Source of the DNA: an uncultured Methylomirabilota bacterium
GTDB lineage: Bacteria; Methylomirabilota; Methylomirabilia; Methylomirabilales; 2-02-FULL-66-22
Direction: 5' to 3'
NCBI GenBank assembly: GCA_963845565.1
Contig: CAWJSJ010000005.1
Span: 608,001-672,000 of the forward strand
DNA: 64,000 nt
Shown here: positions 44,133-64,000 of the stretch, piece by piece
Numbering within the stretch: the first letter of the stretch is position 1
How the letters are laid out: each line of letters opens with the position of its first letter
Notes under the pieces: generated by a model
What the model was told of the DNA's origin: nothing
What the model saw: only the letters and a program-made list of their open reading frames with translations
Databases searched by the model: none
Position numbers and translations under genes: made by a program

Positions 44133-44309
44133 AAATCCGAAATCCGAAGCGCGAAATCCGAAGCAAATTCGAATGTTCAAAGGACACGACACTTTGAAAC
44201 AGTATGAGCGGGAAATACCCGCGGGGCGGTTCGCCGGTGCGGTGTTTTGAGCATTGTTCTCTTCGAGTTTCGGAATTGTTTCGGATTTCGAAATCCGGAT
44301 TTCGAGTTT
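44133..44309. repeat. Inverted heptamer-array element, empty (A)
   Basis: 4 AAATCCG-like units-AAGC-further units-AAAC, ~43 bp spacer, mirror arm. Confidence 0.88.
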
Positions 44310-44338
44310 TCGGCATATCATACGCGTGAAGACCAATG

Positions 44339-44486
44339 GGTAATCAGACGATTTGGCAACTGGGCAATGGCAACTGGGCGATTTGGCGACTCGGGGCTGT
44401 GAACGGTGAAGGCTCGTTGGACCCACACCAAGTTGCCAGGTCGCCTAGTCGCCGAATTGCCCGATTGCCAAGTTGTCCGATTGCCA
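44339..44486. repeat. Inverted octamer-array element
   Basis: GGCAACTG/GGCGATTT units, spacer, CAAGTTGC/CCGATTGC units. Confidence 0.85.
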
Positions 44487-44532
44487 ACCCAGCGCTGAAC
44501 CAGGCAACGCAGCAGAACGAAGGAGGACCCGT

Positions 44533-60849: not shown

Positions 60850-62279
60850 ATGGGACGGAAGAAGCAAGCCGACCGAAAGGGTGGGCGCTCCACGGACCTG
60901 TCACCACCGCCCGGCCCGACACAGGGTCCGGCGGCTCTGCAGCCGGGAACGTCCGAGGCCCCGCCCCCTCCGCCGAAAGAGAAGAAGCCCTCCGGCTTCA
61001 GCATGCTCCTGCTCCACGTTCACCCCAGGATGGTGCCGGAAGAGGCGCTCGCGTTCATGCGCACCTGTGGGCTCGGGGGCATGGCTGTGGTGCTCCTCGT
61101 TCTTCTCGCCGGCACGGGAGCGCTGCTCTTGCTGGCGTACGAGCCCTCCGCGGAGCGGGCGTACGGGTCGGTCCTGGGCCTGCGGGACGACACGGCCATC
61201 GGCGGCTTCGTGCGGAACATCCACTTCTGGGCGGCCAATAGCCTCGTCCTGGTGGCCGTTCCTGCATCTCCTGCGGGTCTTCTACACCGGGGCCTTTCAC
61301 GCGCCGCGACGATTCAACTGGGTCATCGGGCTGCTCCTGCTCAAACTGGTCCTGGCGTCCAACTTCACGGGCTACCTGCTCCCCTGGGACCAGCTCGCTT
61401 TCTGGGCCGTGACCATCGGCACGGGGATGCTGGAGTACGTCCCGCTGGTCGGCCCCACGCTGGAAACGGCGCTGCGGGGCGGGCCCGAGGTCGGGCCCAA
61501 GACCCTGTCCATCTTCTTCGTCCTGCACATCGCGATCCTGCCGATCCTGGGGGCCATCCTCGCCGCCTTTCACTTCTGGCTCGTCCGGAAGGCGGGTGGC
61601 GTCATCCTCCCGAGGCCCCCGGGGCCGGAACCCGCGCCTCGGCCCACGATGGTCCCCACCTCGCCGAATCTGGTGTTCCGCGAAATGGTGGTGGCCCTCG
61701 TTCTGGTGGCGGGTGTGCTCCTCACCGCCGCGGTCTTCGATGCGCCGCTCCTGGCGCAGGCGAATCCGGGCATGAGCCCGAACCCGGCCAAGGCCCCGTG
61801 GTATTTCATGGGGATCCAGGAGCTTCTGGTCCATCTGCACCCGGCTTTCGCCGTCCTGGCGGTGCCGATGCTGGTGGTGGCCTTCCTGGTGTTTCTACCC
61901 TACCTGAACTACGGCGAGACCCCCTCGGGCCTCTGGTTCCACTCGGCCAATGGGCGGCGCACGGCCCTGGTGGCCGCGGGGACGGCCCTGGTGGCAGTGC
62001 CCGCCGGCATCCTCACTACCGAGTATGTGCTGAGCCTCCCGAAGCTGCTTGCCGTTCCTGCCCCCGGCCGTGAGCACCGGCCTGCTTCCCACGGGGGTGC
62101 TGGCGCTCCTGGTGGTGGGGTTCTTCGGACTGAACCGGTGGCGGTTCACGGCCTCCCGGATCGAGGCGATCCAGGCGGTGTTCACGCTGTTGACGGTGGG
62201 GTTCGTGGTGCTCACGGTGACCGGGGTGTTCTTCCGAGGCACGGCCATGCGGCTCACCTGGCCGTGGCTGGCAAAATGA
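60850..62279 (+). CDS. Cytochrome b (b/b6 family), frameshifts near 61260 and 62050
   Basis: [30 protein letters not shown]...FH haem ligands, APWYF. Confidence 0.9.
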
Positions 62280-62368
62280 CCAATTGCCAATGTTCAAAAT
62301 GTTCTTGTTCCTCAGGGTAAAGACTGTGCGCGGCATGGCCACACATTCATTCACAATCAGACGGGCAT

Positions 62369-62506
62369 AAATCCGAAGCACGAAAATCGAAATTCGAAAC
62401 AATCTCAAATGGCCAAATGCCAACTGTCCTAAACGGGTGAGTTGAGAGATTGTGAATTCTGAAAATTTGAATTTGTCTCGGATTTCGATATTCGAATTTC
62501 GGATTT
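62369..62506. repeat. Inverted heptamer-array element, empty (B)
   Basis: 4 heptamers-AAAC-further units-AAAC, 6 bp spacer, mirror arm ending just before the Rieske SD. Confidence 0.88.
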
Positions 62507-62516
62507 CTGAGGAGTC

Positions 62517-63029
62517 ATGGATAGCGAAAAGGCTGCAGCAGTGGAAACGAAGGCCGGGGCCTCGCGGCGGGATTATCTGAGGACCGCGTGGAAGGTTCTC
62601 GGCCTGGTGGCCGCCGCCGAGTTCGCGACCGTGCTGGTGGCCTACCTCTGGCCCCGCGCCAAGGGGGAGGGCGATACACGGGTGGCGGTGGTTGAGGCCG
62701 GCCCCGTCGCCGAGTTCACGCCGGCCTCGGTGACGGCCTTCCCCAAGGGGCGTTTCTACCTGGTCCGGCTCGCCGACGGGGGGTTCCTGGCGCTCTCCAG
62801 CCGATGTTCGCACCTGGGCTGTTCGGTCCCCTGGAATGAGAAGACCCAGACGTTTCCGTGTCCGTGCCACGCGTCCGTGTTCGACATGACCGGCAACGTC
62901 GACAGTCCGCCGGCGCCCCGCGCCCTGGACCTCTTCCCTGTGCGCATCGAGAGCGGCGTCGTGAAAGTGGACACGCGGAACCGGGTCCAGCGGCAGCGCT
63001 TCGAGCGCTCCCAGGTGACGTATCTGTGA
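62517..63029 (+). CDS. Rieske iron-sulfur protein
   Basis: SRRDYL Tat-like anchor, CSHLGC, CPCHAS, PAPRAL. Confidence 0.95.
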   Translation: MDSEKAAAVETKAGASRRDYLRTAWKVLGLVAAAEFATVLVAYLWPRAKGEGDTRVAVVEAGPVAEFTPASVTAFPKGRFYLVRLADGGFLALSSRCSHLGCSVPWNEKTQTFPCPCHASVFDMTGNVDSPPAPRALDLFPVRIESGVVKVDTRNRVQRQRFERSQVTYL

Positions 63030-63042
63030 GAACCCGGGGGGA

Positions 63043-63542
63043 AAACTCGAAATTCGAATATCGAAACCCGAAATTCGAAGCAAGCATCAATGTCCAAAAG
63101 AACTGAAGGATCGAAACGGTACGACTTGGAAGAGCGTACCTTGCAGTTTGCGAAGGACGTCCGGGCGTTTGTAAAGGCGTTGCCGCGGACGATCGCGAAT
63201 GAGCAGGATATTCAGGCAGCTCGTGAGAGCATCGGGCTCGGTGGGGGCGAACTACATCGAAGCAAACGAGTCCCTCAGCAAGAAAGACTTTGTGATGCGC
63301 ATCAAGATCTCTCGGAAGGAAGCGAAAGAAAGTCGGTACTGGCTTCGGCTGCTCGACACAGGGGAAAATGATTCGATCGACAAGACTCGGGACGCACTGA
63401 TCCAGGAAGCGACCGAGTTGATGAACATCTTCGGCGCAATCGTGCGTAAGAGCGAATGACCCGTTTCACCGATTGCCGTTTTCGAATCTCGCACTTCGAG
63501 CTTCGAATTTGTTTCGAGTTTCGAAATTCGAGTTTCGGATTT
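63043..63542. repeat. Inverted heptamer-array element enclosing a four-helix-bundle gene (C)
   Basis: Left arm 63043-63117, right arm 63478-63542, same architecture as A and B. Confidence 0.88.
63090..63459 (+). CDS. Four helix bundle protein (23S rRNA IVS / TIGR02436-like), one extra base near 63211
   Basis: YDLEERTLQFA...QLVRASGSVGANYIEANE...ISRKEAKESRYWLRLL...EATELMNIF. Confidence 0.9.
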
Positions 63543-63550
63543 GGGTTCTC

Positions 63551-64000
63551 ATGACTGACGCCGGACCTGCGAAGACCGGGAACGACACCACGCAAAGCCC
63601 CCTGCGTCGCTGGGAGGTCGTGGGGGTGCTGGCGACCCTGGCCATCGTCCTCACCGTGCCGCTCCGCCTGGCCGTGGTGGCCGCCCGCGGCCCGCAGCAG
63701 CCCGGCCGCACCGCGGCGCTCTACGTCGGCAGCGACGCGTGCAAGTCTTGCCACCAGGGGGCATACGAGAAGTGGCGCGGCTCGAACCACGCCCTGGCGA
63801 TGGCTCCGGCCCGCGAGGACACCGTCCTGGGCGACTTCAACAATGCCACCTTCACGGAGAAGGGGAAGACGACCCGGTTCTCACGAAGAGACGGGAAGTA
63901 CCTCGTCAACACCGAGGGCCCCGACGGCAAGCCTGGGGAGTTCGAGGTGGCTTACACCTTCGGGTGGTTCCCGCTCCAGCAATACCTCATCCCATTTCCC
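63551..64000 (+). CDS. Membrane-anchored (multi)heme cytochrome c, 3' end outside the window
   Basis: Own translation: TM helix, YVGSDACKSCH (CxxCH), WRGSNHALAM, VLGDFNN, YTFGWFPLQQYL. Confidence 0.85.
   Translation, partial: MTDAGPAKTGNDTTQSPLRRWEVVGVLATLAIVLTVPLRLAVVAARGPQQPGRTAALYVGSDACKSCHQGAYEKWRGSNHALAMAPAREDTVLGDFNNATFTEKGKTTRFSRRDGKYLVNTEGPDGKPGEFEVAYTFGWFPLQQYLIPFP

Follow-up and report, generated by a model that had tools for sequence, protein, structure and literature searches.

A four-helix-bundle gene framed by inverted heptamer arms: a candidate dispersed cassette of bacterial gene junctions

The closest described systems are the intervening sequences (IVSs) of bacterial 23S rRNA. 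In Coxiella burnetii, tandem GACAGAT heptamers precede the S23p ATG in such an IVS, whose ends form a 28-bp stem cut by RNase III and whose ORF is decaying; in the accessible part of that report, the heptamers are treated as a local feature, the idea that the ORF aids mobility is credited to Ralph and McClelland 1993, and further ORF-bearing 23S IVSs are cited from Leptospira, Xanthomonas and Brucella (PMC4990558). On the protein side, as far as the accessible text of the three sources goes, Xcc0516 is a pentamer and PF05635 has been linked to Avd (PMC10053308), the Avd pentamer binds nucleic acid in crevices between its protomers (bioRxiv 10.1101/2023.10.23.563531), and 18 family genes lie inside cas loci (PMC3936711). 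Intergenic heptamers have also been described: GGGAATC in Xanthomonas and GGGGA(T/C)T in Nostoc, the former in convergent inverted pairs (70 and 75 cases) and with the excess of heptamers in general left unexplained in the text at hand (PMC4692102), and TAACTGA arrays in Beggiatoaceae, Cyanobacteria and Bacteroidetes, for which the portion available gives no mechanism of spread (PMC4679880). The main texts of these two papers, as far as searched, do not name the PF05635 family. No paper describing the cassette class reported below was found in the literature searched, from which most subscription journals were absent.

Here we describe a cassette in which such a gene stands between two inverted arms of heptamers. 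With the 23S rRNA IVSs, as far as the available text describes them, it shares the protein family, inverted ends, heptamers directly before the ATG, sporadic occurrence and horizontal acquisition; its size is about 500 nt, compared with 428-444 nt, and its complementary ends can likewise form a stem (31 nt, 84%). Unlike them, it lies between protein-coding genes (for a Rieske protein and a cytochrome c), outside 23S rRNA, its arms carry no sign of RNA-stem selection, and it leaves gene-less doublets; its ORF is under purifying selection, whereas that of the Coxiella IVS is, by the accessible account, decaying. The Coxiella rRNA IVS is one published instance of the arm-gene-arm design. The arms resemble the published heptamer repeats, in the parts of those reports at hand, in consisting of 7-nt units, in lying between genes near start and stop codons and in their patchy distribution. 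The modelled protein has the four-helix-bundle fold of Avd, 2RLD (BT_0352) and 2GSC (Xcc0516); in contrast to a diversity-generating retroelement (DGR), however, no PF00078 reverse transcriptase stands beside the gene, whose neighbours encode the Rieske protein and the cytochrome c, and, in contrast to Avd genes, it is flanked by repeat arms of its own.

In REP/RAYT systems, REPIN doublets and MITEs, a single-copy gene between inverted repeats is accompanied by many gene-less intergenic doublets, and RAYT is an HUH tyrosine transposase. The cassette protein is instead an all-helical bundle, with no PF01797 match at the locus, and the arms are tandem 7- or 8-mers rather than REP palindromes. 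Sharp inverted ends, empty orthologous sites and internally deleted derivatives are features that the cassette shares with insertion sequences and MITEs. It fails as an rRNA IVS, as a part of a DGR and as an insertion sequence, but in construction it resembles the first and in behaviour the last.

The locus and its gene

The window is a stretch of 64,000 nt from an uncultured Methylomirabilota bacterium. On its plus strand, the left arm (63043-63088) begins with five AAnnnCG heptamers (63043-63077), makes an AAGC step and continues through AAGCATC into the degenerate unit AATGTCC, which contains the ATG of the gene at 63090; the first ~10 codons prolong the degenerate arm. The right arm (63478-63542, minus strand), read as its reverse complement, consists of a core of four units (63515-63542), AAACAAAT (63507-63514) and further degenerate inner units behind. 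A scan of 62800-63800 for inverted pairs returned 63043-63073 and 63512-63542 as the best, with 84% complementarity over 31 nt. The GC content of the cassette is 50.6%, versus 68.2% for both neighbours. These are the gene for a Rieske [2Fe-2S] protein upstream (62517-63029, plus strand; PF00355), itself preceded by a cytochrome b gene, and that for a c-type cytochrome downstream (63551-64000, plus strand; PF13435, E 2.3e-4), which starts 8 nt past the right arm and runs off the window. A sequence-only reading had listed the heptamers of both arms, placed the ATG inside a left-arm unit, fitted the element between the Rieske stop and the cytochrome c start, and assigned its protein to an IVS/Avd-like family. 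The sequence agrees with the units as written and with the position of the ATG, and both neighbours are intact around the cassette, the Rieske gene ending at 63029 and the cytochrome c ATG standing at 63551; the family assignment is borne out by the profile and fold matches given below.

Four-unit arrays of the AAATTCG type occupy 38 rows genome-wide, a count in which overlapping plus- and minus-strand calls of one array are entered twice, versus 0 in each of three block shuffles. A promoter and terminator scan of the locus returned no promoter and one terminator-like site, with 1.6 expected, and Rfam gave no match near gathering score (three chance miRNA-type hits lay far below). A perfect 9-bp inverted match (63027-63035 and 63543-63551) lies over the Rieske stop and the edge of the cytochrome c start, its right side taking in the base before that start and the first base of the gene; the match is partial in some orthologs, and an inverted repeat reaching into the flanks was rejected as a feature of the element, not being general in the family. 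The cytochrome b/Rieske/c-type cytochrome operon (60881-64000) has a sub-threshold likeness to ExtP and ExtQ, and is present in three of the 251 genomes of the class, with two copies in one of them (G009).

The gene (63090-63459, plus strand; ~122 codons in orthologs) matched PF05635 (E 9.5e-12; 45.5 bits, cut-off 33.8) and TIGR02436 (E 2.5e-17; 63.1 bits, cut-off 24), and an intact ortholog scored 71.2 bits, above the curated family cut-off. In the window it is split by a one-base frameshift near 63211-63214, which the sequence-only reading had missed: the frame opened by the ATG (63090-63371) has no family match, and the match sits in the frame 63199-63459. Near-identical contigs from two of four runs (X1 and X4) are one base shorter at 63214, and one of them (X1 record 6) otherwise has 2 differences in 156 positions; the other two runs gave no row showing the missing base. 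Given these contigs, the uninterrupted frame of nine orthologous gene cores and the break that the assembly also shows in the nearby cytochrome b, the frameshift is likely an assembly error; alternatively, the window gene may be a real recent pseudogene. Genes between 56895 and 62320 are split into overlapping frames (cytochrome b and, by eye from the translation, a sulfatase-like and an HAD-like gene), which fits an indel-rich assembly. The pooled dN/dS of 0.14 (range 0.07-0.33; 28 non-independent pairs of 8 equal-length cores) indicates that the protein is maintained by purifying selection.

The model of the protein from ortholog L039 (pLDDT 92) has four helices (residues 14-28, 35-59, 64-87 and 94-121). 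Foldseek with this model retrieved 2RLD (E 6.8e-5) and 2GSC (E 7.9e-4) and, weakly, the Avd structures 4DWL and 8UB7 (TMq 0.69-0.70, E 0.039; 15-16% identity). 2RLD (BT_0352) is also a sequence homolog (E 8e-10), with five chains in its structure. By homology, the cassette protein would be a pentamer with a barrel like those of Avd and Xcc0516; a four-copy complex prediction, with a copy number that is wrong for the putative pentamer, scored 0.36 against a mark of 0.42. The four-helix bundle is the only ORF of the cassette, which encodes no transposase of the DDE or HUH type. The window had been read as lacking a reverse transcriptase, and PF00078 indeed had no match in the whole genome (98.7% complete). 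PF01797 had four matches genome-wide, none of them within the window and none with clear arrays close by; these Y1 transposase genes were rejected as cassette partners, as no arrays above 14/21 lay within 1.2 kb.

Occupied, empty and gene-less sites

We compared 37 Rieske-cytochrome c junctions, comprising 33 metagenome loci from a Rieske protein search, three loci in G009 and G022, and the window; a class-wide Rieske search of 251 genomes gave no orthologs beyond those two genomes. Seventeen junctions carry the gene and arms (three of these are cut by contig ends, one is interrupted by an insertion and two are pseudogenised), and five carry arms only. Empty orthologous operons, for which the sequence-only reading had proposed to look, do occur: eight junctions are empty and four are otherwise filled, by an unrelated hairpin, the remaining three being uninformative. 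In the empty alleles L048 (Rieske 92% identical) and L066, the cytochrome c ATG stands 8 nt behind the Rieske stop. In a tree computed from the Rieske DNA of 31 rows (L051, L060, L061, L065, L068 and L069 were left out), all distant orthologs are without the element, and L048 and L066 are nested among element-bearing rows on the best tree. Element-bearing rows as one clade were not rejected (p-AU 0.165); full rows as one clade and arms-only rows as one clade were rejected (p-AU 1.8e-5 and 2.8e-4, respectively), and L038, with arms only, is sister to the full L040 at a distance of ~1%. These results are compatible with one old insertion, by which the cassette would have entered the junction in the ancestor of one clade. 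Since then, the arms have more than once lost their gene or had it exchanged, and gene-less doublets have remained. In L047, L049 and L052, the left arm recurs behind the gene in direct orientation, with a short spacer between this repeat and the right arm; recombination between the two direct arm copies would remove the gene or bring it in. In L061 (500-700), a ~206-nt insertion with its own inverted ends breaks the four-helix-bundle gene.

The genome has one family gene only. The cassette is not isolated in the window: gene-less inverted pairs of the same arms lie, on the plus strand, at 62364-62508, between cytochrome b and the Rieske gene (profile E 3.8e-8 and 3.4e-7), and at 44133-44309. 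The first pair is present in orthologs L037, L039, L044 and L069 and absent or replaced in the others read. The second retains the first ~12 codons of the gene in degenerate form, as does C5:690055 (10-12 codons), and was not found behind the homologous upstream gene in genomes G015 and G009. At C5:692915, the sequence of window 63045-63096 is joined to that of 63450-63484 plus a right arm, at another site; this is an internally deleted copy of the window cassette. An octamer-armed locus, L245 (C5:766283-766447), holds only the 5' half of its own four-helix-bundle gene, and in L139, L130, L116 and L125 the full gene stands between homologous neighbours at the L245 site. Arm-to-arm skipping joints occur in DNA and RNA runs alike and have short sides; the best reading of them is that gene-less copies at other places gave rise to them. 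RNA run X16 (share 0.07) gave contigs on the gene and on the neighbouring element, at 83-96% identity; being from relatives or other organisms, they were rejected as evidence of transcription, ends or splicing.

Among arrays of at most 60% GC, 87 of 155 with period 7 and 44 of 83 with period 8 have an inverted partner within 600 nt, versus 3 and 2 for control windows. Many array types in the genome are without a cognate gene there, which counts against the explanation that we prefer. Right behind the heptamer doublet at 44133-44309 lies a gene-less octamer doublet with TTGGCAAC-like units (44338-44487), so that two repeat families are stacked in one spacer. The cytochrome b-Rieske junction (62280-62516; orthologs L033-L069) is a hotspot, which across relatives holds AAATCCG-type doublets, AATGACC-type arrays, an octamer doublet, CCGCATT arrays, unrelated hairpins or almost nothing. 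A 3.7-kb block of this genome (L244:1135-4830) is missing in G009 (L263); it begins inside one heptamer doublet and holds another, and G009 keeps only the left arm there.

Arms across the protein family

TIGR02436 was matched in 31 of 41 related genomes, with up to 16 matches in one, and in 35 of 151 genomes across the phylum; the family is common in the window's order and occurs in one of 93 genomes of taxonomic family f9 and 0 of 11 of f10. From 123 family loci (29 and 14 from genome searches and 80 from better-scoring rows), we obtained 126 matches, 114 of them full length, and 97 after 80% clustering and a 200-nt flank requirement. Period-7 arrays lay upstream of 71 of these 97, downstream of 64 and on both sides of 60; period-8 arrays flanked 20 on both sides, and periods 5, 10 and 11 none. 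Controls gave 1.6 (dinucleotide shuffles), 2/35 and 4/69 (distal windows) and 0/97 (inside the gene). Left and right flanks aligned in inverted orientation at 87 of the 97 loci and in direct orientation at 26, and across loci in 5%. The inverted arrays that had been read at a single locus are thus enriched at the flanks of the family, where the modal run is five units, then four (by a looser rule).

Each protein clade has its own 7- or 8-mer unit, and different units accompany different clades within one genome; such tracking is expected without recognition, because gene and arms are inherited together. Among testable pairs of related genes, non-homologous neighbours occur in 3 of 13 with an identity of at least 80% (a band that includes one locus fetched twice), in 23 of 34 at 70-80% and in 64 of 82 at 60-70%, the pairs not being independent. 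No near-identical copies were seen at different sites in this comparison, and the closest pairs with differing neighbours are only ~81% identical, indicating that movement is old or rare. One scan of viral contigs with one protein gave 12 pattern matches, none confirmed.

A search with ortholog L039 gave 566 confirmed stretches, and the counts that follow concern the best 80 of the 566. These, at 62-73% identity, bear 20 NCBI phylum labels plus 7 unassigned, several of the labels being Patescibacteria lineages and metagenome bins being possibly mislabelled. Full flanks were available for 74, of which 73 show a period-7 array on at least one side, 55 show one on both sides, and 69 have an inverted match. 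Over 73 loci, the filter detected a run in 54 left arms, 44 of them with exactly four AAnnnCG-type units, and in 56 right arms, 51 of them with exactly four; part of this unit invariance is built in, because the filter accepted nothing but A at position 1 and either of two bases at positions 2 and 6. The four-unit run is followed by AAACAAAT, and left and right arms are nearly alike in base profile. Host loci with the same arm span 31-65% GC; a fixed unit number over this range argues against slippage and would resemble a site for a fixed-size complex. The outer 12 nt beyond the arms are unrelated (identity 0.28, versus 0.27 by chance and 0.82 in the core), so the cassette ends are sharp. No target-site duplication stands out clearly: matches of at least 3 nt were present at 11 of 44 loci, versus about 5 expected; the insertions are old. 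TA-dinucleotide ends, suggested by L033 and L038, were rejected, as the family has no fixed flanking base. Neighbours are co-oriented on both sides at 45 of 57 assignable loci. The gene with its arms is a bounded unit at unrelated gene junctions under many phylum labels.

Among 70 close relatives from the same best 80 of 566, the protein column most informative on the last base of the unit was the helix-4 residue of AIVRKSE, which in the window is Arg (codon 63445-63447, plus strand) accompanied by G-ending units. For this column, chosen post hoc, the mutual information was 0.41, versus 0.25 for the best of 200 label shuffles that ignored kinship. Of 46 loci with Arg, 45 have G-ending units and the one other is A-type. 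All 11 T-ending loci carry Thr (7) or Glu (4), three of four A-ending loci are without Arg, and nine G-ending loci are without it as well, six of them having Lys or His. On a tree built without the tested columns, five independent pairs on starred branches gave 4.0 in the same direction and 0 in the opposite (median p 0.125; fewer than six pairs cannot reach 0.05). These data are suggestive of a helix-4 residue that tracks the last base of the unit.

Readings of the arms and what they would mean

The sequence-only reading proposed an mRNA-level intervening element, whose arms may pair, loop out the ORF and possibly be processed. On this view, the arms would be kept for pairing in the transcript, the Rieske stop would be brought to the cytochrome c start, and RNase III might make a cut. 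The RNA fold check proposed there was run, and the sense strand does fold arm-to-arm (z -2.42; 0 of 100 shuffles as stable). The Coxiella 23S IVS, with the same family, heptamers before the ATG, a 28-bp stem and, in the accessible text, a mapped RNase III cut (PMC4990558), speaks for such an element, as do the mostly co-oriented neighbours (45/57 loci) and the 9-bp match over stop and start in the window. However, the antisense strand folds at least as well (z -3.74), and a pairing constraint in mRNA should favour G·U over A·C mismatches on the sense strand, as seen in the acceptor and T stems of the genome's tRNAs (24 versus 2). In the arms, G·U and A·C stood at 201 versus 199 (87 of 97 family loci with a stem), 173 versus 165 (67 of 73 close-relative loci, best 80 of 566) and 42 versus 50 (34 position-anchored cores). 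About 18% of core positions are mismatched without compensation, and the match between arms is 0.83 within a locus versus 0.80 between G-type loci (p 0.0005), meaning that both arms mostly follow the family consensus; the slight within-locus excess itself speaks against the explanation that we prefer. Moreover, the outer flanks are not complementary across the family, and a cut between two coupled genes would have no religation step, as the accessible text on the IVS indicates (PMC4990558). The missing G·U excess and the antisense folding argue against selection for a sense-RNA stem, and we consider the looping-out of the ORF in mRNA unlikely. To judge from these comparisons, the constraint probably acts on DNA, or equally on both strands, rather than on an mRNA stem; this leaves room for a stem that forms in RNA and is cut as a by-product, as in the Coxiella 23S rRNA.

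Another role in RNA would be that of an autoregulator or post-transcriptional regulator, whose pentamer would bind one arm as single-stranded RNA near starts and adjust how its own gene and those downstream are translated, and whose regulon would be the gene-less arrays. Such a role would suit a gene under purifying selection whose ATG has a fixed place in the left arm, with no evident Shine-Dalgarno sequence, and it has parallels, in the portions of the sources available, in the binding of RNA by Avd with flipped bases between protomers and in the translational role proposed for TAACTGA heptamers upstream of start codons (PMC4679880). It does not account for an arm of equal size and profile on the opposite strand without wobble bias, and it sits poorly with the highly polymorphic junction occupancy among close relatives and with up to 16 family matches per genome and many units across loci, while many array types of this genome lack a cognate gene; we regard it as improbable. 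A protein acting as an Avd-like reverse transcriptase cofactor, with repeats written or copied through an RNA intermediate, would be consistent with the structural likeness to Avd (TMq 0.69-0.70, E 0.039) and with the requirement of the DGR reverse transcriptase for Avd, as given in the accessible text. This is very improbable, however, given a genome that is 98.7% complete and has no PF00078 match, and arrays that degenerate position-specifically instead of being perfect copies. Finally, the arms might be simple repeats made by slippage, or host MITEs in AT-rich spacers, with the gene merely co-occurring, as the 155 period-7 arrays of at most 60% GC beside one family gene and the several unrelated repeat elements gathered at the adjacent junction could suggest. 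Against this, arms have a set number of units, one arm type accompanies one protein clade over host loci that range from 31 to 65% GC, clades that share a genome differ in their units, and gene-less copies retain gene pieces. Co-occurrence by slippage or as MITEs is largely refuted, and we give it next to no credence.

On balance, we lean towards a dispersed, horizontally spread cassette of arm-gene-arm design whose protein would bind its own inverted sites. That the protein recognises the repeats, as had been proposed from the sequence, gains indirect support from the units that track protein clades, the helix-4 residue that tracks the last base and the fixed unit number. The putative Avd-like pentamer would quite probably bind the tandem units of each arm, four or five of them, with one subunit per unit and the end of helix 4 reading the last base; the match between four or five units and five subunits would be numerical only. 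In the DGR complex, the accessible text describes contacts of all five Avd protomers with an RNA stem-loop, with flipped bases in the crevices between protomers (bioRxiv 10.1101/2023.10.23.563531), which sets a precedent for one pocket per subunit being reused, though with RNA. This stem-loop is, by the same portion of that source, the sole solved ligand of the fold family, and its being RNA counts against the reading of DNA. By binding and bridging the two arms, the protein may help the cassette and the gene-less copies derived from it to be copied or relocated, to which we assign somewhat less than an even chance. As no catalytic enzyme can be recognised among the products of the cassette, strand transfer would have to come from a factor acting in trans or from host recombination. 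The cassette would persist by landing between stop and start codons, mostly co-oriented, and being carried by host transcription; ORF-bearing 23S rRNA IVSs would have arisen when copies inserted into rRNA, from which RNase III could remove them thanks to a stem that is incidental. A bolder form of the same idea, tentative and in our view rather doubtful, is a class of mobile elements that do without a transposase: a small pentamer would read its own 7- or 8-mer arms by a simple residue-to-base code and bridge them to spread the cassette. Such a class would be the parent of heptamer repeats and ORF-bearing rRNA IVSs and possibly the source of Avd.

With the cassette, the orphan family PF05635 gains a candidate ligand that is written beside each gene, and the long-noted excess of heptamer repeats in bacteria gains a candidate source. 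It may also explain the repeat clutter at operon junctions, as 131 of the 238 period-7 and period-8 arrays here have an inverted partner nearby. If the cassette reading is true, ORF-bearing rRNA IVSs would be chance landings of a general cassette, and if the residue-to-base code is true, this 14-kDa protein would be a very small, natural and retunable binder of tandem repeats.
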